Shown: positions 35,052-51,769 of the stretch, one piece after another
How the letters are laid out: every line of letters starts with the position of its first letter
Position numbering within the stretch: the first letter of the stretch is position 1
Origin: Fistulifera solaris
Lineage: Eukaryota
Assembly: GCA_030295235.1 (NCBI GenBank)
Contig: AP026130.1
Span: 930,001 to 994,000 of the forward strand
Reading direction: 5' to 3'
Length of the DNA stretch: 64,000 bases
The notes under the pieces: generated by a model
What the model was told of the DNA's origin: nothing
Databases searched by the model: none
Seen by the model: the letters and a program-made list of their open reading frames with translations, nothing else
Program-made: the position numbers and the translations under genes

Positions 35052-37767
35052 ATGGTGAAACGAACACGAAAGGAGCATTACGTCGAAGGGTTTGGCGACG
35101 GCTCGGCTCCTGAGGTGCAGAAGGATCACCCAAATCAAGGTCAGAAACGCGATAGACTTTCACACCACGTTCGACATGACAAACTAAAGATAACAACCGA
35201 ACAAATTCGCAATGGAAAAGCACAACAACACGCGCAAGATTTTCACGGCTATTATCCGCCCGGAGATCGATGGGACCCTTATTTAAATGGCGGACACGAA
35301 AGAATTCGCGGCTATCATCATTCAATTGGCGTAGTGGATCAGTGGCAATATTCTGTGTTTGCTTTGGTAGCGTCCGTAGTTCTCATGATCGCACTTTGCT
35401 TGCATTTAATCTCGGACGGTGCAAATGAACGAAGGAAACATAAATACGCTTCTAGAAGCCGGCGAGAAACGCCAAGTCGTATGCAAAAGAAAACAGATGT
35501 CTGGATACCCGATGTTGATGAAAAGCGCCAAAAAAAAGAACAGCAGCAACTGGATACTCAAGCGAGTAGGCCATTGCATGCGTTCCAAAATCCGTATCCA
35601 GCCCGTCTTCAACAGAGAGTACCCCAGCGTATTGCAACGCCCGATCCTTCTCCCATAGTCGTAAAAGCTGTAACAAATGCTGCTGCACGACCTACAATAT
35701 CTGGAGCATCTCATCTTTCCAAAGGTGACCCCTTCGCGACGCAAAGTACGTACATGAATACTTCGGGAGGAGGCATGTTGTATCGTGCTCCAGAGTCAAT
35801 GGTCCGAACTCCAGCTCGCACCAACATGTCTTCTTCGAGGCTACCTTCACCTGGCGATGCACTTTCCGCACATAAACGTACGCCATCACGCCACGAACAT
35901 CAATTCAATGGTCCTTCGCCTCTCCGGAACCCTCTTGCCAATAGCAACCCGACAACACCGATTTATGATAAGCCACTGAACCAAATGTATGCCAGCCAGC
36001 GAGCCATTGCACTGGAAAGTCGTGTCTCGTCATTTGGATCACTGGTAGGAACAGATTCGCTAGATGATAGTGGTCCTCTGGATGAAGAAGCGGGGACACC
36101 TAGTGGAAAGCTACGATACGCAGATCCATTGGACTTTGGGGGTTCCGCTTCATTCGAATGTTCGCATGGAAGTGATGATGTCGATGAAACCGAGCGAATG
36201 ACAGGACGCTCGAAGCCTCGACCTTTCCATGGCATGCCGCCAGACTGGACGCAAGAAACGCCCCGTGCTACGAATTCGAAATCGATTTTACCATCTGGTT
36301 GTCTCAATGTAACTTCGACACGCAATAACGATCCGTGGCACAATATCAGTCTCCAGCCACCTTCAGGTGACGGCTCTTTGGCATTCGCCTCTCCTCCGGC
36401 TGCGAAACGTCGCCATAACGATGCAGATGAATCTGATTACCGCATACCATTCGTTCCTCATTTGGGTCCAGAGATTTCTGCACCTCCGGCATCGATAAAC
36501 ATCAATGCCCTTCGGTTGCATCAAATGGAATCAGGCAGCGTCCCGCACTGGGCAGCGGAATCATTTTCAGAAGCTATTCTTGGAAACGAATATTCAGAAG
36601 AATCGTCCTCGTCAAGTTCGGCTGTCGATAAGATACCGTCGAATGACCCAAGAGCTGGGATAGATCACAAACGAAAATCGCTTATCGATTTTACTAACTC
36701 AGCCGCTTCTCTTCAAGGAGCCATTGATTTTGAAAAATTGGAGTTGATTGAGGTCATCGGCGGCGGCGGTTTTGGGCAAGTATGGAAAGCAAAGTGGCGC
36801 GGAACACCCGTTGCAGTCAAGATACTTACAGGTTCAGCACAAAGTAAGCATGTGCCCAGAGCAGTGCTGGAGGAATTCGCCGCTGAGATCAATTTACTAA
36901 AGGGCATGCAACACCCCAATATATGCTTATACATGGGCGCTTGTGTGGTGCCTCCAAACCGTGCAATTGTAACGGAACTAGCTGCACACGGATCTCTGTG
37001 GGATGCGTTGCGTTTACCTCTGGACTCACCATTTACTGCGTGTGACGGTGTAACACACAATGGTTGGCCGATTTCATTATTTGAGCCGGATCCTCGCTAT
37101 GGTACACCCCCATCACATCGATATCCCAATCAACCTCCTGTTCCTCCAAAGTATCAATGGCCTTGGGTACTGGTAAAGAAAGTTGCAGTTGGTGTCGCTC
37201 GTGGTATGGCGTATCTGCACGGAGGTGATCCCCCTATTCTGCATAGGGACCTCAAGTCGGTAAGGCACATCCGCATTGTTTCGCTTGTTATATTTTTTGC
37301 GATGAATCCAAATGCTGTTTACTCAATTCCCCGCATGACTTCATATTTAGGCCAACATATTGCTGGACGAAAGTTACAATCCGAAAGTATGTGATTTTGG
37401 GTTGAGTCGTCTGAAGGCTCAAGAACGTAGCATGACAGGCAATTGCGGAACAGTCCAGTGGATGGCTCCAGAGGTTCTTGCTAATCAATCCTACAATGAG
37501 AAAGCCGATGTTTTTAGTTTTGGGATCATATGCTGGGAATTATTGACGAGGCAATGTCCGTATGAAGGAATGACAGCGATTCAGTGTGCACTGGCTGTTC
37601 TCAATCGCGATAGCAGACCTGAAATGCCAAAATGGTGCCCTCCTTGCTTGTATGCTATCATTCGATCTTGTATCAAAAAGAATCAAGACGAGCGACCAAC
37701 TTTCGAGCAATTACTGCGAGATTTCGAAGGACTTCCCGACTCCTCACCTGTCAGTGGTCGTATTTGA
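35052..37767 (+). CDS. TKL-family protein kinase with one N-terminal TM helix and long disordered linker
   Basis: IGGGGFGQVW, VAVK, HRDLKS|ANILL (intron 37260-37350), DFGLSR, GTVQWMAPE; TM segment YSVFALVASVVLMIALCLHLI. Confidence 0.92.
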
Positions 37768-37897: not shown

Positions 37898-38890
37898 TCA
37901 TGTAGACGCCATTATAGCACGTTGCTTGCCGTTGTCATGAATTTCACCAAAGGCAGAAACGTTCTGATCAAGAGTCGCCTGCCCAAAGTCATCCTCGCAT
38001 TGCGACATGACAATTTGCAACGGTTGGACAGTAGCGTACGCTATGTCTTGTGTGATAGCTCCTGATTCAGCAAGATTACGAAACCAAGACGGAATCTCTT
38101 CTTCCTGAACATTCATCCGCAAACAAACATCTCGCGCAAACGTACAACAGTTCTTTCTCAACAAGTCATAATCGACACCCATGTACTCAGGAAGCATTTC
38201 TTTTATTATCTGACGACCGTCGATGTACTTCTCAACTTCTATTCGATCTTCACCGGAATTGTCCGGTCGGGGAACTCGTTTCCACTTTCGTCTCGTCACA
38301 ATGCGCTGTCCCAAATCGATTGTGGTTCGGTATTGGTAGCCCAAAGAATTCTTAGGCTTGCAGGTGAAGATACCCGTCCGTCCTGGGATATCAGTGGAGC
38401 CGAAAGCGTATTCGATACCATTGATGTCTACTCCCACATGATAGGCCCCAGTCCCAAGTTCATGCAAAGCCGAGTTTACTTCGCTAAAACACTTTCCTAT
38501 GGCGCACACGCAGCCCCATGGAAGTTCCATTAAAGTGTCGTTCGGTATCAGGTCATAAATATGCAGCATGACCGAGTTTGAATGAACAGGGCCAGAAGCA
38601 ACAACACGGTTTTTTCGGTAGGTTCTGCGTGTTGTTCGTGTCGATGTACTTTCAAATGAATTCTTGTCAAGGCCCAAAAGAGATTTTGATGATGCTGGAC
38701 CAAGGGAAAGGCTTTCATCATTAGACGTCACCCCATCGATCGACAATGAATACGAACAGCTCGACGCTGGAGAAGAGAGCGATAGGTCAGCATCGATGGA
38801 GCGACCAAACCTTTCGCGCGTTTTAATGAATCGACCGAGGGATCTTTCATCCTTGTCGAAAGTACTACCCGACTGGCTCTTATCCGACAT
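37898..38890 (-). CDS. PPPDE/DeSI-family isopeptidase
   Basis: VMLHIYDL, GAYHVGVDINGIEYAFG (catalytic His) and YDLLRKNCCTF (catalytic Cys). Confidence 0.88.
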   Translation of the reverse strand: MSDKSQSGSTFDKDERSLGRFIKTRERFGRSIDADLSLSSPASSCSYSLSIDGVTSNDESLSLGPASSKSLLGLDKNSFESTSTRTTRRTYRKNRVVASGPVHSNSVMLHIYDLIPNDTLMELPWGCVCAIGKCFSEVNSALHELGTGAYHVGVDINGIEYAFGSTDIPGRTGIFTCKPKNSLGYQYRTTIDLGQRIVTRRKWKRVPRPDNSGEDRIEVEKYIDGRQIIKEMLPEYMGVDYDLLRKNCCTFARDVCLRMNVQEEEIPSWFRNLAESGAITQDIAYATVQPLQIVMSQCEDDFGQATLDQNVSAFGEIHDNGKQRAIMAST

Positions 38891-39406: not shown

Positions 39407-41062
39407 ATGGGCTGCTGTTACAGCTCACCGCATTCCAAGCGAAAGTACCGTCGTGTCGATCCGGGCGATCTGGACGAAATCGATGTTCCTCTTCGGTGCG
39501 TCTCATCGTAATTTCGCTCATCTACAACTCGAACAAGACTTTCTCACATTCATTGACGGGCCTGCTAGATATTTCGGTACAAATAGAGCCGGTTCGAATC
39601 TAGTACCTGATGATTGCAGCGCTTTCTATTCAGCGTATCTCGATGATTTTTTGCCTGTGAATGCGGAAGTGGTTCTTTATGAAGCAGAAATTGATCATGG
39701 CCAGGCATTTCGCTGCTGCAGTGCACTGACCCTTCCACTACAATTCTTGTTCAAAGTACCTTCTGCTGTGTTTTCGGGTTTGGTTTCCACCCTACTCCAC
39801 TGCTCCTTTGATCAACCGTGGTGTTGGGTTCGTAAGGAGTACAGTTCGAGGACATTCTTTCGAGTCTACGGGAACCGTATTGAGATCAATCAGCCGCAAT
39901 TACGCATTCCGTTCGGTTTTCTTGGGTGTGGAAGTTGGAATAGCGACCAGAGTGTGAACCACGCTTTCGACCGGGGTGCGTTTGGATTTTCGGTGGTGAG
40001 AGGCTATTCCAGTGAGCACGCTTGTCTCGTCTTTCCTGTTTTCGGTGGCGTCGTAGCTCGTCATAGATGTCAATGTAACGGGCCCGTGTGGAATAGGATG
40101 TTTACAGATTGCGGTAAGAGTGTTGTGCCCGGTTCGAGATCACTTAGTTTTGTCGCTCATCATTGATTCACGATATGATTTCGTGTTCAAAGGTGGTTGG
40201 TGGTAGGTCGCCAATAAAAAATCTGTATGAATATCGGTTCTGTCCATTTAGAGCTTACCATTTCACTTTGTAGGTGTGACGAGTGGCTCTGCCTTTATTG
40301 TTGCTGTACGTACAAGTATAGGGGACTAGCTCATCCAGATGAAACAGCATTTGCATCTTCGATTGCTTTGCAAGCGTTTTTCGAGGGGCGGAATCTTTCC
40401 AAGGAAGACATGGATAAGTGTATCGCATACTGGAGGGATAATATCTCGGAGCAAACGGACCCTTCGAGACGAAAGCGACCCGTATGTTGCGAGCCCTTGT
40501 GTGCTCCGTGCTGCACTCTATCTTGCATTCAACGCCTGACACACCCGAAACGCAATATACCGTACAAAGGCGATGATGTTACGGATGAATTAGAGGAGGT
40601 GCGTGTGAATTGAATGTGATTTGGAGCCTGTGGATGTGTATGTCATAGTCCTATCGGCTGACCCTCTGTCTCCAGGTATATCGGAGATACAACGCCGAAG
40701 CGGAGAGTCAAATACAATATTACAATTCGTTCTATGCACCTGTTAGACTGTCTACATTTTGCCGTGCCTGGGGATGTCGTCGAGTGTGTGGACGCAAGGG
40801 TGTCTGTTTCTGTACGGAAGGATGCAATCATTGCGATCGCAAAGCTGGTGATCCAGCTCCTCCTTTGGATGTCCACGACTTTGATGATGAATGCGATGCT
40901 TCTACCATCCTCATAAAAGTTCTTGGTCCTCCTCCTGCCAATGTTTGTATCCGTCGGTGGCGGTGGGATCCAGAATTGCAGAAGAATGTGCTAGATGAGT
41001 ATTCCACGGTGCAACGAGCTAGATTGGAGATCGCGATTGGAGAATTCGAGAAAGATGAGTGA
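39407..41062 (+). CDS. Cys/Trp-rich hypothetical protein with MGCC dual-acylation motif (5 exons including a 10-nt micro-exon)
   Basis: Introns ~39496-39568, 40114-40192, 40203-40273 and 40599-40675 join four ORF-track fragments into one frame. Confidence 0.75.
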
Positions 41063-41406
41063 TGCTATTCATAACGAAGAAGCAAAATCTTCGTAGCGAT
41101 TTTTCTTAAAACAGTGTTGCAACCTATCACTAGCTTGACTAGAAATTTTTGGTGTGGAAGTATGTGAAATAGCAAGATGCGCCCATCGAAAGTACGCTAA
41201 GGATACGAGTGGTGACGTGTTGCGTTCGTCAGTCAGTTTTCGCCCGTGTGGCCTCATCGCCGCAAGCATGTGATGTGTGCGACGATGCATGGATGCAAAA
41301 GAGGAGAAAGCAAGGAATGAATCATCATCATAATCTATGAAATAATAAGCCGTGCATGCGACCCCTTCGGTTCTCTTACAAACATATTTCTGCTCGTCTT
41401 GATTCG

Positions 41407-43352
41407 ATGAGACTTCGATATTCCCTTTGCCGGCAGCGCTTGCTGTATTTCCTCCTCCTGCGATGGGATGGACGCAATTCTCTATTACTGCACGCCACTC
41501 GTCGTCGCTTGCATCTGTAGTAAGCGTAAACGCATTAAAAGCTACAGTAGACACATTAGATGAAGTCGTACCTGCCTTAATGCAGAAAGACGAAACGCCG
41601 ATTGCTCGAGGTACTGTGGTAGCCAATTTTCCGGGAGGTTTTGCGGCGATCAAGCTCGACGACGGCGACGACGAAGCAAAATTAACTGCACCCGAGGTGA
41701 TTGATTTGACGAACAGTGCTGCCGCTGTAGCTGCTGCTAAAGCGGCAGCGAGCGAATCGGGTAGCTCGTATGGCGACTTACAAGGAAAACGTGTACAGTT
41801 CTCTCACGGATCGTCGGGTGTCGTTGTCTGCCATCGTCCTCCGATTGCTTTCGTGCTAGCCGCCGACGAAACATCTGCCGAACACATGGAAAACGCTCAA
41901 ATTTTTAGAGACATGACAAACGTTTCCGTCTTCGACAAGGCTTGTATAGTGGACTGTTTTGGAAAGGCTATCGATAGCGCGGTAAAACAGGGATCAATGG
42001 AACGTCCTATTTTTGCCCCAATCCCTCAAGTAAAAGATATTGCACTCATCAATAGCCCGATGCTGACAGGAACAACCATGATTGATTCCCTAGCTCCTAT
42101 CGGGCGAGGGCAAAATATGCTCTTTGTTACATCGGACCGGGAGAGTGCGCAAGGATACGCAATGGATCTTATGCGGACACAATTGAGAAACGGAGGAAGC
42201 ACGAAGTGTGTCTACGCGATCACAGATGGGCAAGAGAACATTCTTCAACAGTTGGAAAAGCATGGTATTGCCGACAAAGTGACTGTGATTGTCCCCAATT
42301 CGAGAGGGGGCAAGAGCGAAACCGCTCAAGCAGCCGAGGCAGTTACAATGGCCGCCACGGCGTGCGCCATCGGAGAAGCCTTCGCGCTGGAGGAAGGGGC
42401 ACACTCGCTGGTTATAATTGATACTATTGATCAGCATAAGAAGCTGTGGGATGCGACTACTCGGACTTTGGTTGACGTGTTTGGTCTTGAGGCGGTCGTG
42501 GAAGGTGACCGAAATGGCGGAGCGTCTTCTGAAATGCGCTCCTTTTACTCATCATTGATACAGCGATCCGCACAATATAAAGCCAGCAGAGGAGGAGGGA
42601 GTGTCACACTACTTCTATTGACGACGGTGCCTGAGCCAAGTGTGGATGAGAACACGGTCTACGACGAGAGTTTGTTTGAGGGAAGCCCAGCCAAAATTTT
42701 AGAACGCATCAATCTACTTACCAAGCGTGGAATCCCTTTAACTGCTGCAAATCTGAGAAAAATTGACATTCCTATACCGTCGACAGCTGAAGGAGCCCGC
42801 CGCTTTGCTTTGCAGCATGTAGACGATCTAATAAGTATGTCAGATGGACAGATCTGGATGGATGATCGTCTGAAAGGAAAACAAGAACCCCCTTTAGACC
42901 CCCAACGTAGCGTCACTAGAATTGGTATTGGAGCTGATACCGATTCAAGAGCAGATGCGCCAGCTCTGAGACGAGTTGTGGAAGGCCTACGCCTCGACCT
43001 TTCACAAGCTGCCAATATGGATGGAGCAGAAGCAACCGCTGCGTCAAAAAAGCAAATACAAAGACAGCAATCACTTATATTAGCCATGTATCAGAAACCT
43101 GGCAGCGGTGGACGCAGGCTCTCCGAATCCTGCGTAGCGCTCCTAGCGGCATACAATGGGTTCCTCAATGATTCCATCGAAAACGGGGCCGTTTCGGGAT
43201 CGACCGCAGGGCTCCAGCTGATGGAGGATCTTTTGCGGTATGTGGGAACAAAGGAAGCTAAGTGCATGGATGAAATCGACCAATCTATGGATTTATCCGC
43301 AGAATCCCGGGACAAGCTTGCAAAAGCAATCGAATCATTTTTCGACAAATAA
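41407..43352 (+). CDS. F1-ATPase alpha-subunit-like paralog lacking Walker A
   Basis: PMLTGTTMIDSLAPIGRGQ, AIGEAF..EGAHSLVIID, FYSSLIQRSAQ..GGGSVTLL and LISMSDGQIW..SVTRIG track F1-alpha. The start at ATG 41407 requires a 1-nt indel near 41425. Confidence 0.8.
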
Positions 43353-44808
43353 TTTCAATAGACTAGGTGGAACATTACACAATCCAATGTATTGGTAGTT
43401 TTTTTAGTATTCATTCCTGCGAACGCTTATGTATCAGGACGGACATAAGAAGCTCGAAGCACATTAGGAGCTAGTTTCAAGCCAAAGATACGCAGCTAAG
43501 AAACCTTAGTGGCTAGCTAGAGAGAACGTTGGATGGTGCCTCGTCCTTCACGCGGAAGTAGACTATTGCTCCAGTCTCAACCACCTAGAAAATGCCGGTC
43601 TTAGTGTCCCGAACTGTGGCTTTTGTAAGCCGTTGTTATTCAAATGAAAGAAACACACGGCAGCAAAGGCACATGCTACTATCCGGGATCCAGTCTCTCG
43701 AGTTATATTATCCCGGACAACCTTAGCTAACGAACCTAGGCCGTGAACCGTAAACGAGAATAATCATCATCGGTCATCGGTCATCGGGAATCGGAAAAAT
43801 GACTGAATGAATAGTCCGGCCCTGCAGACTTTAAAACATTTGATATATTTTATGGTGTAGTGCTAAATTTGGACGTTGAAGTAACGTGCAGTAGTAGAAG
43901 AGGAGAAAAGAACGTTCGTTTTTGGCTTTGAATTTTCTAGTATCGACTGTGGATTGTGCAGTGACATATGATTGGCGACATGTGACCTATTTATGACCCG
44001 CTTGTGACCATTTTCAATTATGCCTGCTGAATTTTACTATGTTTCACCTACTTTCGGCTTGATACTTTTTCATATTTTACTCCTACCAGCTCCGGCCTTT
44101 TAATAATTAATTTCTGTATGCGTACTTATGTATTATTAAGTCACATTTAGCGATTCAATCTTCCGTTGAACACAGCTTAACTGATAGTCCTACTAACAGG
44201 TCGTGATTTGTCTGGCGAAGTAAAAAAAATCGCACAGTTTTCTCTATAGTCTTAAAGGAGGCACGGTTACGTTGCGTTAAACAAAGAAGGCGACGCGAAA
44301 GTCGTGAAAAGACCTGGTACTTTTCTACGTGTCTTGGCGTTGAAAATGTACTGAATGAAGTAGGGTTCGGACTTTTTCGTCGCCAAACCCGGTAATGCAC
44401 ATCTATGCGAAAAATTTAATGAAATTGTTCTGTTTTGATAACCCTAGAGCGATATTTTTAGATAGAGTCTATCTTACCCAGTTTCCTAATTACAACGAGC
44501 ATTATCGACGCTGCCGGCGTTTTAGTCATAAGTCCCCTAAAATTCAGTGAGGAATTGGCTTGGACACTTACGGAGTTTGCGGTACCGGTACGTTGGGTGT
44601 TTCGGGGACGTATCCCACAATGAATATAATTTTTATTCGTCGTTGTTCGAAGCGCGTAGCGACGATGCAAACCATTCGGAACCGCTCATCACGCTGCGGC
44701 GGGCCAAGCACGAATTGCGAACCCTTGTTGCAATCCAAGCCTTTCAATTCAAAGAATAAAGGAACTCTTAGAAAGCGTAGAAGAATAGTAAATAACGGCT
44801 CTCCGCAA

Positions 44809-46866
44809 ATGACAAACGCAGCAAACACAAAGGCGCAAGGAAAGGCGATCGCTCCTTTGATCGAGTCTAAGGGTCCGGCGATCTCGAGTGAGATACGGGT
44901 CCTTCTATATACAACATGTTACAATGTCATCGATGGCGTAACTCTGACGATCCGGAAGCTTGAACAGGAGATCTTGGCGGCCGGTCATCACGTATGTATA
45001 CTGTCAACTGCCTCGGGGGACCCTGCGAATACAAACATGGACGGAGTACATCCGAATAGGCGAGTTGTATTTATCGATGACTCTGTACCTATTCCCTTCC
45101 TGCACGATGAAAACAACCCAGATTTGACGTATCACGTCGGCTTCGCGCTGTCACGGTCGGTTCGAGCACAGATTGAAGAGTTTGAGCCAAGCATTATTCA
45201 CATTACCGTTCCAGATTGCACAGGATGCCACTTAATTCAATACGCTCGAGAGAAGGAACTCCCGATCATGGGAACATATCACTCGAACATTCCTGAGTAC
45301 ATGGAGCATTATCCGGGCTTATCATGGTTGAAAATCATTCTGGGTCGCTACTTCCGGCATCAATATAACTTCTTGCAGACCCTCTATGTCCCCACTCCTT
45401 ACATTCAAAAGCGTCTCGTTGACTCCTACAAGATGGACAGCGTTACCAATCTCGGCATTTGGGGCCGAGGTGTCGATATAAACAGCTTTCACCCCTACCA
45501 CCGTTCCCTGAAGTACCGTCACAGCCTTGGCATTCCCGATGATTGCCCTGTGATATGTTGGGTGGGACGCTTAGTTTCAGAAAAGCGCCCTGATATCTTC
45601 GCCAACGTTGTTCGCCGTCTCCATTCCGCCGGTGTGAACTTTCACGCGCTTGTGATTGGTGCGGGGGCCTGCGAAGACGAGATCAAGCAACTGCCGAACA
45701 CGACATTTTGCGGCTGGATGAACATGTCGGAACTCGCAGTTGCGTACGCTTCATCCGATGTATTCTTGTTCCCTTCCGCAGTCGAGACCTTTGGAAATGT
45801 AACTCTTGAGGCTGCGTCCAGTGGACTGCCTGTTGTTGTGGAAGAGGGGTGCTCTGGTCATCTAGTTAGTCAAGGAGTCAATGGCTTTGCTTGCCCTGAG
45901 GGTGACTCCGATGCGTTTTACGAAGCAACACTTCAGCTCGTTACGGATGCCAAGCTTCGAGACGCATGTAAAATTGCCAGCAGAGAAATCGCCGAAACCA
46001 TGGAAAAGCGATCGGTGGTACGGGCCATGTTAGACAACTATGCCCAAGTCACCGATCAGTTCTACACCGAATACGGCGGTCACCACGCCAATCGCGACCG
46101 TGTGTATCGCAAGCCAAACTCATTTGTCGCCGGAAATCACCCAAGGCCGCTTATCTTTGTCATGGTTGAATACCTAACGATCGTGCTGTTTCAAGTCATT
46201 TGGAACATGACCAACTTTTTCATGTCCATGCAAGAAATGATGCTTTCGTTCGCTGGTTTTGCCAATGTGAGCCATCACATACCTCAACAGCTACCATTTC
46301 ACAGCGTTTACGTGAGTTCAATTGAAGAAACGGTTGGAATGTCAACTGAAAGCGAAACAAGTTCAAGCTCGGGTTCTCCAAGAACCGTCCCCTCTGATAG
46401 CCAATCTCATCAGACGGATGGCTCAAGTCCTTCCATGTCACGTATCTCTTCAAGCAGTTTAGCGGACTCCACTACAGAATGCAATAACAGCATCAGTGAC
46501 GACGAGCTATCTGAGACCGAAGAGGGCGTCCTTGGTCACCAAGGGTGTGCTCCCGAGTTCAACTGCGCCCGCGTTGACGGACGCAGATTCAGTCATGGTG
46601 TTGCTTCAGTGTTTGTAACGTTTGTCGAGTTCCAATGTCTAATGGAGAGTCACATCCGCAACGCGGTCAGTGGCTGCTGTATTCCGACTTTTAAACGGGC
46701 AGTCAAACGCAAGAACAGCAGTGGTGACCTACAGCATCTAGTTGAAGACTCAACTCACGGAAGACCGCTCCGAAGTCGACTGGAGATGTCTGGCTTGATT
46801 CAACCTGACGGCCACCGTTTACGCCGACAAAATCACCATACCTTGGAAAGTATTACCACGGTATAG
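44809..46866 (+). CDS. GT4-family glycosyltransferase (PimB/MgtA/SQD2-like)
   Basis: DGVTLTI, GTYHSNIPEY, WGRGVD, VGRLVSEK and YASSDVFLFPSAVETFGNVTLEAASSGLPVV (EX7E). Start uncertain because in-frame ATGs exist upstream. Confidence 0.87.
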   Translation: MTNAANTKAQGKAIAPLIESKGPAISSEIRVLLYTTCYNVIDGVTLTIRKLEQEILAAGHHVCILSTASGDPANTNMDGVHPNRRVVFIDDSVPIPFLHDENNPDLTYHVGFALSRSVRAQIEEFEPSIIHITVPDCTGCHLIQYAREKELPIMGTYHSNIPEYMEHYPGLSWLKIILGRYFRHQYNFLQTLYVPTPYIQKRLVDSYKMDSVTNLGIWGRGVDINSFHPYHRSLKYRHSLGIPDDCPVICWVGRLVSEKRPDIFANVVRRLHSAGVNFHALVIGAGACEDEIKQLPNTTFCGWMNMSELAVAYASSDVFLFPSAVETFGNVTLEAASSGLPVVVEEGCSGHLVSQGVNGFACPEGDSDAFYEATLQLVTDAKLRDACKIASREIAETMEKRSVVRAMLDNYAQVTDQFYTEYGGHHANRDRVYRKPNSFVAGNHPRPLIFVMVEYLTIVLFQVIWNMTNFFMSMQEMMLSFAGFANVSHHIPQQLPFHSVYVSSIEETVGMSTESETSSSSGSPRTVPSDSQSHQTDGSSPSMSRISSSSLADSTTECNNSISDDELSETEEGVLGHQGCAPEFNCARVDGRRFSHGVASVFVTFVEFQCLMESHIRNAVSGCCIPTFKRAVKRKNSSGDLQHLVEDSTHGRPLRSRLEMSGLIQPDGHRLRRQNHHTLESITTV

Positions 46867-49434: not shown

Positions 49435-51769
49435 ATGTCTTTCAGATATAAAAACATTTTACGTGATCAGTACTCACAGTTTGCGAAGCTGTCGGCGGCG
49501 AGGTTTTACCCTTGCGGAACGACGATTACTACCTCCAAGCGACGACTTACAGCACCATCGCCACGCTTTTGGGTTCCCCCGGCTTATCAAGGCGGATTGC
49601 GGACAAGTAAGGCATATGAACAACGCACGGGCAGCAAGAAATCACGGGATATCAAAGGTCGAAATGAAAAAGGTCGACCTTCCAGTTTCAAGGTAAAGAA
49701 GAAACGTAATACCGAAGACGCGGCTGCGTTGTTGACAAACGATTTCGAAGAGAAGAAGGCGCGTTTTGCGGAGACATGCAGCAATCTTTTACTTTTCTCG
49801 CGTCGGTACAAAGAACATCTTGCTAATGGATCCGTGTCTGCGATTGACAAAAACATCGATATGCCGTCCACATCGATTACGTTTCTTACCAAACAACTGA
49901 AGGATGCTTTCCATGATATCCATAGCACTGAGACTACGCTCACGTGGAATCATATCATTAGCACCGAATTGATTTTTCGAGAAATTGCAGCTGCTCTTCA
50001 AGAAGCGATCGTTTTGCCTACGCTCTTAGCGAAAGAAGAAAGGTCTCTGATGAAACGCAAGGAATATGCCGATCTAGCAGAATTTGCCTTGTCTTCGTTG
50101 CTTTCCCTTCGATCAGAACGTGCGTTGCTGGTGAAGTCTGTGTATCATTGGAGCTCTAAGGTCACCCCACCCTATCATCGCAAACAAACAAAGTCTTCGT
50201 CCATTAAAGCTTGGGTAGCCACCCTGTTTGAGACGGCAGCCCGAGATATTCCCGAAGCGGGGCCGTATACGCAAGCACTTCAGATGTCTGGCTCCTTTGC
50301 TCACGAAGATCATTCCCTAGGAGTATCGCAATCCATGTTTCTCGCAGTTATGGAAACCATTGTTTCGACTATTCCGAGCTTCAGACTTGATAGTATGACA
50401 TTGGATCCGCACGTAGAGCCCGAGAATGTTCATCAAACTTTAGATCGCCTTGTGAATTTGTTGGACAAGCTTCCTTCTCCAGATTCGGAGCACGGTGAAT
50501 TGTTTGCGTTTGTGATGTCGATCTTTGCCAGCGTGGGAACATTGGAGAGTGCCCGAAACAGTTTTGACTATTATCGACGGTATAGCCACATAGTACCATT
50601 TTCTTTGGTCTTGAATGTATATTGCGAAGCCGCGCGACGAGAAGAAGATCACGAGCTTTCTAATGTAATTGCGGATGAATGTTTCAATCTTGTTCAGCAA
50701 GAATGGGACGAAAGCTTACCGGAAGAGCCACTGGATGGGGTGAATCATCTTTGCTTGGCGCTGGAAAGTGTATTCTTGGCGAGAGGGGTAACAGAAATTG
50801 ACATGTGTGACCGTGTTGAAACACTAGTGAGGCGCGTCTTAGCAAGTGGAGAGTATGACAACATTTTGAGCAATGCAAAGACACAGAATGTGGTGTTGCC
50901 GCCGGAAGGCCCTACCATCCACCTTCTAGATTGTCTAATCAAAGTGTTGGGAAATTGCCAGGAAGAGCAACGCATCAGACGCGCGCAAAAATTGCTGGAT
51001 TACTTGCTGTATTATACTGGGTGGGGAGGAGCGACGCCATCGTTTCCGAGCACTGATGCATGCAATCAACTACTCGATGGTTTGTGTTGGCTACATCGAG
51101 GCAAACCACAAGCCGTTCACCAGGAAATAAAAAAGAATGACCTGGAGTACTCTTCTTCGCTTCTAAAATTTATGCAGACAACAGGTAAAAGGTGTTGCTG
51201 GCCGACCGACTCCACTTTCCAGTCCATTTTTAGATTGTTGTCAAGTGTGGCCCCCGATGACCTCGGCGAACAAGCCGAGTACCTGCTATCGAACATGGAA
51301 ATGAGGAATCCCATTTCTTCTGATCCCATTCACATATCCCTAGCAATGTACCATAGAGTCATCGGTTGCTGGGTGGAGGTGGCGAACAAAAAGAGAACAA
51401 CTGGTAATGCTTTTGAAAGGTGCATGTTTCTTCTTGAACAGATGGAGATCCAGTCGATGCCCCTACTTTTGACGGAAAAGAAATACGTACCGCAAGCGTC
51501 AAAGGTCTTTACCATACTGAGCTTCAGCCGACCGTACGAACGTACAAGCTTATTCTTGGCATTTTTCAAACAGAAGCAAATAATGTTGGTGGTGAAATAA
51601 GTGAGAACACGGAGCAGCTCTTTTTGCTCTTGTCGATAGCATCAATTTGCGCGGTATACTAGCGAGCGAACCTTCGTTAAGGAAGCGCGTCAGGAATTGC
51701 GTACAACTTATAGCACGCGAATCAGAGGAGAAGCACCGCGTTCAGGCATTACTTGAAGATTTGAAGTAA
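49435..51769 (+). CDS. Helical-repeat (PPR-like) protein, probable mitochondrial presequence
   Basis: 721-aa ORF with Arg/Ser-rich N-terminus; PPR-like motifs (PSTDACNQLL, PTDSTFQSIF, and PTVRTYKLIL after a frameshift near 51480). The 3' end is uncertain. Confidence 0.55.

Follow-up and report, generated by a model that had tools for sequence, protein, structure and literature searches.

A very probable xATPA gene in the diatom Fistulifera solaris: a nuclear F1 alpha paralogue without its own ATP-binding loop

Results

The locus and its genomic setting

The window analysed here, by which is meant the whole stretch of 64,000 nucleotides at positions 930,001 to 994,000 of the forward strand of contig AP026130.1 (Fistulifera solaris, assembly GCA_030295235.1), carries on its plus strand an uninterrupted ORF of 629 amino acids plus a stop codon (41463..43352), for which no intron needs to be invoked. 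In a database search this ORF was 100% identical over 100% of its length to a deposited F. solaris protein of 665 amino acids, GAX15727.1 (P0001 in our set), the record of which is labelled “F-type H+-transporting ATPase subunit alpha”. F. solaris has a homeologous pair of this gene, GAX15727.1 and GAX15762.1 (P0407), the members of which are 93% identical. Protein-kinase, PPPDE peptidase and GT4 glycosyltransferase domains are found in the neighbouring ORFs; judged by these domains the surroundings are an ordinary nuclear context, in agreement with the first-pass annotation, which had described the gene as nucleus-encoded.

A probably missing T and the N-terminus

In the window as given, the frame of the long ORF is closed by a TGA at 41400-41402 and contains no in-frame ATG upstream of the ORF, and the two ATG codons at 41356 and 41407, which share a frame of their own (ORF 41356..41520), lie one base off it. 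Contigs from four public runs, whose RNA status is a guess and which covered the flanks too, were aligned to positions 41000-43700. A 542-nt public contig spanning 41213-41753 shows no mismatch to the window except for an extra T “behind 41425”, at a depth of 14.3 of 14.3 in this one contig, that is, in a plus-strand run (41426..41428) which has three T in the window and four in the contig. With four T in 41426-41428 the ATG at 41407 comes into frame with the long ORF and the resulting N-terminus is letter for letter that of GAX15727.1; the homeologue GAX15762.1 has the same N-terminus, already in frame. The extra base in the contig, the match to the deposited protein and the in-frame homeologue together make it most likely that the window carries a one-base homopolymer error, an assembly deletion, within the T-run. 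The N-terminus had previously been reconstructed as MRLRYSLLPAALAVFPPPAMG-W and taken for a bipartite plastid presequence; these residues are upheld by the contig and by both deposited proteins once the extra T is read, whereas they cannot be read from the window as given, in which a change of frame is needed downstream of the ATG at 41407. A single base, very probably missing from the window, would thus mask a putative plastid presequence, and this local correction of the assembly is reported here for the first time.

The signal peptide of the presequence, followed by W, can be placed at 41407..41468 on the plus strand and is readable only with the one added T; after that addition the order is a predicted signal peptide, then G, then W. 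The deposited model GAX15727.1 begins further upstream, at the ATG at 41356, which is in frame with the ATG at 41407 and so defines a possible 5' extension (41356..41406, plus strand). This extension probably lies outside the signal peptide, as most diatom homologues start their signal peptide at the methionine matching 41407. A Ser/Thr-rich, transit-peptide-like region follows at 41469..41597 on the plus strand (residues 3-45 of the long ORF); it is predicted to be disordered, with pLDDT below 50 at residues 1-35, and the homologues have a comparable non-conserved stretch.

The same layout recurs among the diatom homologues, whose N-termini comprise a short basic start, a hydrophobic stretch, Ala, Ser or Gly with a following Trp (or Phe), and then a Ser/Thr-rich stretch. 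An aromatic residue directly after the signal-peptide cleavage site is a hallmark of plastid import in diatoms (the “ASAFAP” motif). Counting as N-extended those diatom homologues with at least 45 residues ahead of the barrel (n=62), [AGS]W occurs within the first 75 residues in 50 of the 62, where shuffled presequences have it 16.6 times on average and never more than 26 times, and seven of the remaining 12 have Ala-Phe in its place.

The alpha fold

Pfam recognises the central domain of the window ORF as PF00006 (E 9.7e-11, 42.1 bits, cut-off 29.5). The C-terminal domain PF00306 gives a weak match at residues 501-626 which, at 22.8 bits, stays under the cut-off of 27, and no Pfam match to the N-terminal beta-barrel PF02874 is listed for the protein. 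A phmmer search against the PDB returned 84 distinct sequences at E<=0.01 (best E 2.9e-24), of which the top matches carry the names ATP synthase alpha subunit or F1-ATPase. The AlphaFold2 model has a mean pLDDT of 88.6 and a pTM of 0.87, and is poor only at residues 1-35 and in an insertion of the N-terminal barrel, or crown, domain. With this model the best Foldseek match in the PDB was 7njq_A (E 9.5e-32), and the yeast chain 2hld_A was also among the best. The best matches listed bear the chain letters A to C, plus one S, one T and one K, which by the naming conventions for F1 we take to be alpha chains.

The crown domain occupies residues 46-156 (41598..41930, plus strand) according to DSSP strands at 46-65 and 109-156, between which lies the poorly predicted insertion (residues ~66-108, with low pLDDT in the blocks 70-100); the domain is too divergent to be recognised by PF02874. 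At the other end, a C-terminal helical bundle (residues ~500-629; 42960..43349, plus strand) is indicated by the weak PF00306 match and by modelled helices at residues 500-628 with pLDDT above 90. The modelled protein therefore retains the three-domain fold of an F1 alpha subunit, and the PDB matches, Foldseek and the model all agree with the earlier observation that the F1 alpha motifs are present in order in an alpha-type fold. Its sequence is nevertheless only 23-24% identical to the four canonical alphas compared, including the mitochondrial alphas of Eimeria and bee.

Loss of the Walker A motif and retention of the catalytic-side residues

In the phmmer alignment to the PDB the window sequence PIGRGQNMLFVTSDRESAQG lies opposite the canonical PIGRGQRELII-GDRQTGKT. 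The Walker A motif GDRQTGKT is replaced by T223-SDRESA-Q230 (42129..42152, plus strand), and in an alignment of 74 sequences its G, K and T correspond to T223, A229 and Q230; both alignments support the original reading, that the motif has been replaced after IGRGQ. Even the first glycine of the motif is gone in Fistulifera, which has TSD as opposed to GHD in most diatoms.

A Walker-B-type aspartate, the nearly invariant D320 in LVIIDTID (42420..42422, plus strand), is retained; of the two Asp of canonical YDDL, the second is replaced. The arginine-finger motif QRSVTRIG (42903..42926, plus strand) contains R486, which corresponds to the arginine that alpha inserts into the catalytic site of beta; conservation at S483, R486 and G488 is 90% or more across the 74 sequences, and the motif is present in 116 of 119 close homologues. 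Columns conserved between the 74 family members and the canonical alphas are G203, D208, G214, G216, Q217, S458 and D461, and G462, S483, R486 and G488 are nearly invariant within the 74-sequence alignment.

In F1, alpha contributes the SxxDGQ strand and the SxxR arginine to the catalytic site on beta, whereas Walker A forms alpha's own, non-catalytic site at the opposite interface. Read by alignment, the window protein is thus one that keeps S458, D461, G462 and R486, the alpha residues which serve the catalytic site of beta, and has lost its own nucleotide-binding loop. This combination fits a protein which still docks on beta via a catalytic-type interface, the opposite one having become unnecessary.

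The bump insertion

A helical insertion of ~55-65 residues, the “bump domain”, is placed by the alignments and the model at residues ~389-452 (42627..42818, plus strand), with the conserved core IPLTAANLRKIDIPIPS. In the phmmer PDB alignment the query runs from 386 to 454 where the matched chain runs from 326 to 340, so that ~54 residues are added in the stretch that links GGGSVT with SMSDGQ. Measured from GGGS.T to S[ML][ST]DGQ, the median distance is 76 among 117 close homologues and 21 among 95 canonical alphas. The ~60-residue insertion before SMSDGQ reported in the first-pass annotation is therefore confirmed by both measures. The AlphaFold2 model renders the bump with a pLDDT of 90-97 and helices at 402-405, 410-421, 428-433 and 441-459.

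Twenty bump positions are invariant in nine diatom sequences, and the motif can also be made out in the haptophyte Diacronema and the P0172 clade. The preprint describing the xATPA family (bioRxiv 10.64898/2026.07.08.737214) rates the conservation of the bump, in its available text, as very poor; that the bump is, by sequence comparison, well conserved within diatoms is new here.

Two further observations touch on the bump. The P0172 clade has a diatom-type bump motif, and Chlorophyta is the commonest phylum among the nearest Atlas clusters; these had been the basis for the idea that the bumps of green-type and SAR-type xATPA are homologous. That idea was dropped, the named green algae (Bryopsis, Chlorella, Chlamydomonas and Tetraselmis) and Euglena having a different bump sequence.

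Distribution of Walker A across the family

Among the 120 closest homologues GxxxxGK[ST] is absent from all 119 that could be scored. Most of the close homologues have GHDxxxMR instead, and those of them with a taxon name all belong to pennate genera. In the diatom section of the tree the motif survives in P0128 as GQKGTGKS, the one named centric, Stephanopyxis, has GANGTGKR, and P0142 has GEEGTGRR. The motif is also kept in P0166 and in the P0172 clade, which like P0128 have a SAR-type bump, and in 59 of the 76 scoreable green-type sequences. Chlamydomonas ATP1B (Cre10.g419050) and four of six other volvocine or sphaeroplealean sequences keep it in a slightly different context (GRGAS...GxxGxGKT). 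On the FastTree of 86 rows Walker A is intact in 21, not intact in 60 and unscored in five, a distribution that requires no fewer than five changes of state.

Judged from these sequences, the loss of Walker A is graded across the family, a result that is new here; the preprint describes the P-loop, in its available text, as “not consistently” present. The pattern suggests that individual lineages have lost the nucleotide loop and that its absence does not characterise the family at large. Some relatives do have an intact P-loop (P0128, the P0172 clade and most green-type sequences), which in part is the case that the first-pass annotation had named as evidence against its reading, namely P-loop-bearing orthologues that group as the ordinary mitochondrial Atp1. 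However, they do not group with ordinary Atp1, and that reading stands unrefuted.

Apparent constraint on the two homeologues

Co-occurring contigs that are presumably homeologous were compared over the gene, and of the 40 differences listed, which are part of 118 reported and leave the other 78 outside the count, 29 fall at third codon positions and 30 are synonymous when each is judged singly. The family as a whole is strongly conserved, both in the nine diatom sequences and in the 74-sequence alignment. F. solaris is allodiploid, and on this sequence evidence both of its homeologues look to be under constraint, which has likewise not been reported before.

Discussion

Identity of the gene

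The window protein is 50% identical over 605 columns to the Seminavis robusta protein Sro536_g162070.1 (P0079), and Sro536_g162070 is named as an xATPA in the available part of the family preprint (Penot-Raquin et al., bioRxiv 10.64898/2026.07.08.737214, July 2026). On this basis we have very little doubt that the window gene is the F. solaris xATPA, a nuclear alpha paralogue without an ATP-binding loop of its own. In the FastTree of 86 rows, which was built with no beta outgroup and has long branches and no labelled cyanobacterial alphas, the window protein falls in a starred clade of 38 rows, apart from the four canonical alphas. The available text of the preprint defines xATPA as a family of 222 nuclear homologues across many microalgal groups, all of which carry a targeting sequence at the N-terminus, a ~60-residue “bump domain” in a constant position and the conserved arginine finger but no P-loop that is consistently present, and reports members also in the non-photosynthetic labyrinthulomycetes. 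The name Fistulifera does not occur in its main text. The kind of protein is thus already described by the preprint and the F. solaris gene is no new kind of thing; the available text of a further paper, PMC6723447, discusses only the retention of ATP synthase in colourless Nitzschia.

The closest described relatives are Sro536_g162070 and the Phaeodactylum tricornutum protein Phatr3_J31465 (UniProt B7FRE6), with which the F. solaris gene shares a nuclear single-exon structure, the alpha fold, the absence of a P-loop, a ~60-residue bump at the same site, the arginine finger and an N-terminal presequence, predicted to be of plastid type in F. solaris. Unlike these, F. solaris, another raphid diatom, has two homeologous copies. 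The erosion of Walker A, in which even the first glycine is lost, is extreme relative to most diatom xATPA, the comparison with B7FRE6 being by description. With canonical AtpA and Atp1 the protein shares PIGRGQ, the Walker-B Asp, SxxDGQ and SxxR(V/I)G in the same order, as well as the three-domain fold. It differs from them in having no Walker A, NML for RELI, extra segments of ~9, ~55 and 6 residues, a divergent crown domain and, in contrast to the plastid-encoded atpA of diatoms, a nuclear gene with a presequence (the plastidial diatom ATPA is given as A0T0F1 in the available part of the preprint). Neither PF02874 nor PF00306 scores above its cut-off, and this, together with the missing Walker A and the low identity, sets the protein outside the canonical alphas.

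The green-type xATPA, represented by Chlamydomonas reinhardtii ATP1B (Cre10.g419050) and Euglena gracilis seqid 3018, are likewise divergent nuclear alpha paralogues with an insertion at the same position, and the preprint, in the part available, places them in the same family. However, their BLAST identity to the window protein is 24-29%, no higher than that of canonical alpha, their bump sequence is of the TLS.E..AKL type and most of them have an intact Walker A. That the two types form one family accordingly rests on the phylogeny of the preprint.

Two other readings of the gene can be set aside. The window as given does present a frameshift between the ATG at 41407 and the body of the ORF, as a decaying duplicate of an alpha gene might, but the independent contig removes it and the 629-codon ORF is intact, the homeologues are 93% identical with mostly synonymous differences among the 40 of 118 that were listed, and the motifs are conserved in hundreds of orthologues; the chance that this is a pseudogene is negligible. 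The label of the deposited record might in turn be taken to mean an ordinary mitochondrial Atp1 that has been mis-read or mis-annotated. That reading is scarcely credible and was rejected, as Walker A is missing, identity to mitochondrial alphas is as low as to the other canonical ones, the tree sets the protein apart from them, and the presequence, a signal peptide followed by [AGS]W, is not of the mitochondrial type.

What xATPA may do

The functional evidence comes from the Phaeodactylum orthologue and is taken from the available text of the same preprint (bioRxiv 10.64898/2026.07.08.737214). A GFP fusion of that xATPA gives a signal in the plastid, and the protein pulls down plastid ATPB and ATPC from whole-cell lysate. 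Surface plasmon resonance gave a Kd of 1.2e-8 for xATPA:ATPB versus 2.3e-9 for ATPA:ATPB, i.e., binding some five times weaker. In AlphaFold 3 models, which are predictions only, the bump blocks a third beta, and the preprint also finds the arginine finger to be conserved in xATPA. Knock-outs grew poorly only under the combination of 6 deg C, half salinity and constant light; Fv/Fm, photosynthesis genes and ATPC expression are reported as unchanged, the proteasome, ribosome and translation gene sets as altered, and the rank of the ATPB transcript as raised. According to the same text xATPA is not co-expressed with energy metabolism, it did not behave like ATPA in a yeast delta-ATP1 test, and a labyrinthulomycete xATPA failed to complement. 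A 70-kDa F1-associated protein of Chlamydomonas thylakoids is linked there, as a suggestion, to ATP1B.

The best available explanation of these results, and one which we put forward tentatively since it is slightly more likely to be wrong than right, is a beta-capping or regulatory mechanism. According to this, xATPA would be imported into the plastid by means of its signal peptide and transit peptide and would dock on plastid AtpB through a catalytic-type alpha/beta interface, whilst the bump would block the opposite interface and so prevent closure of the ring. The protein would then sit in incomplete, non-productive F1 sub-complexes (with beta, gamma and possibly alpha2beta2), where it would buffer or regulate the pool of unassembled beta instead of making ATP. 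We infer by analogy that the F. solaris protein behaves like its Phaeodactylum orthologue, and the role of its bump, along with any regulatory role, is to be understood in the same way. The first-pass annotation had proposed an alpha mimic tied to CF1 as an assembly factor or regulator. The mimicry stands, as does the link to CF1 in so far as the orthologue is localised to the plastid and binds ATPB and ATPC; the assembly or regulatory role, given knock-outs with no photosynthetic or ATP-synthase phenotype in the available text, is kept as a conjecture only. Identity, anatomy and mechanism taken as one account are, in our judgement, highly probable, the more guarded view expressed above applying to the mechanism on its own.

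A different possibility is that the protein has a role unrelated to ATP synthase, the alpha fold serving as a scaffold on which the bump recruits different partners, e.g., for protein homeostasis in the plastid, with the binding of beta in vitro a relic. The shift of the proteasome, ribosome and translation sets in knock-outs whose photosynthesis is unaffected would suit such a role, as would the presence of the family in labyrinthulomycetes, both as reported in the available text, and the conserved bump core, with its 20 invariant positions in the nine diatom sequences, suggests a specific contact and not mere bulk. The residues conserved family-wide are, however, precisely those of the catalytic interface of alpha toward beta, the partners recovered from whole-cell lysate were ATPB and ATPC, and it is the ATPB transcript whose rank rises in the knock-outs, and we regard this reading as unlikely. 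It could also be supposed that xATPA is an alternative working alpha which replaces at least one AtpA in complete CF1 and alters its regulation, e.g., by removing non-catalytic nucleotide sites. This would account for the conserved arginine finger and SMSDGQ strand, the binding of the orthologue to ATPB and ATPC and the suggested link between ATP1B and the Chlamydomonas F1-associated protein. It is hard to reconcile with a sequence only 23-24% identical to canonical alpha, a crown domain unseen by Pfam and a bump predicted to stop ring closure, nor is it favoured by the reported lack of a photosynthetic phenotype, of alpha-like behaviour in the yeast delta-ATP1 test and of a comparable affinity for beta; it appears decidedly improbable.

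It is possible, with a somewhat greater chance of being mistaken than of being correct, that not every xATPA is a “dead” alpha and that an ancestral paralogue able to bind nucleotide gave rise to two classes of differing function. The binders would comprise most green-type members, Chlamydomonas ATP1B among them, as well as P0128, P0166 and the P0172 clade, in which Walker A is kept, and the non-binders would have come about by stepwise decay of the motif within the diatom clade. Where erasure is complete, nothing would ever occupy the non-catalytic interface on the side of the bump, and the protein would have become a beta-capping subunit pure and simple.

The xATPA family is only recently recognised and is widespread in microalgae; its members resemble a subunit of a very well-studied enzyme and bind the catalytic subunit of that enzyme, yet seem to be dispensable for photosynthesis. 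The F. solaris gene provides a clean second diatom example in which two homeologues have been retained, and the census of Walker A bears on the choice of model species in which the function of xATPA is to be studied.

Relatives of the P-loop-less F1-alpha paralog

Eight homologues of about 600-670 aa from outside the window (P0172, P0173, P0174, P0178, P0188, P0192, P0200 and P0222), here termed the P0172 clade, were found in the protein searches. Within this clade an intact Walker A and the motif of the diatom-type bump, the helical insertion before SMSDGQ, occur in the same proteins. The commonest phylum in the nearest Atlas clusters of the clade is Chlorophyta, but the bump of named green algae differs from the diatom-type bump carried by the clade. 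P0287, a 935-aa protein also placed in the P0172 clade and lying outside the window, has PF10294 recorded besides PF00006, which could reflect either a gene fusion or two gene models joined into one.

A further group from outside the window, P0508 and P0511-P0524, is abundant in marine metagenomes, with clusters of up to 115 members. In these proteins GEPGTGLSEL stands at Walker A, so that the lysine alone is replaced.

In section 7 of the preprint describing the family (bioRxiv 10.64898/2026.07.08.737214), the text calls the Phaeodactylum xATPA gene Phatr3_J31465, whereas the Fig. 3E legend has Phatr3_J31645; one of these identifiers is a misprint.

Genomic context and gene copies

The xATPA gene (41463-43352, forward strand) is flanked by ORFs in which Pfam domains of a protein kinase (35052-37394, forward), PPPDE (Peptidase_C97; 37898-38890, reverse) and GT4 glycosyltransferases (44620-46866, forward; more than one domain) were found, and by two, 39483-40166 and 49435-51600, for which the Pfam search returned no match. 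No link was seen between the gene and any of these five ORFs.

A public contig spanning 43227-43700 has an extra T directly behind 43398, a one-base difference approximately 46 nt 3′ of the xATPA stop codon. Taken together, this site and the T-run at 41426-41428 (three T in the window vs four in the public contig over 41213-41753) suggest that homopolymer runs have been given the wrong length in the assembly.

Across 41500-43310 the gene is covered by two sets of contigs from the four public runs aligned (X1-X4), one showing no difference from the window and the other differing from it in 5-10% of letters, chiefly at third codon positions. This pattern fits an allodiploid in which the gene has two homeologues, GAX15727.1 and GAX15762.1, whose proteins are 93% identical.
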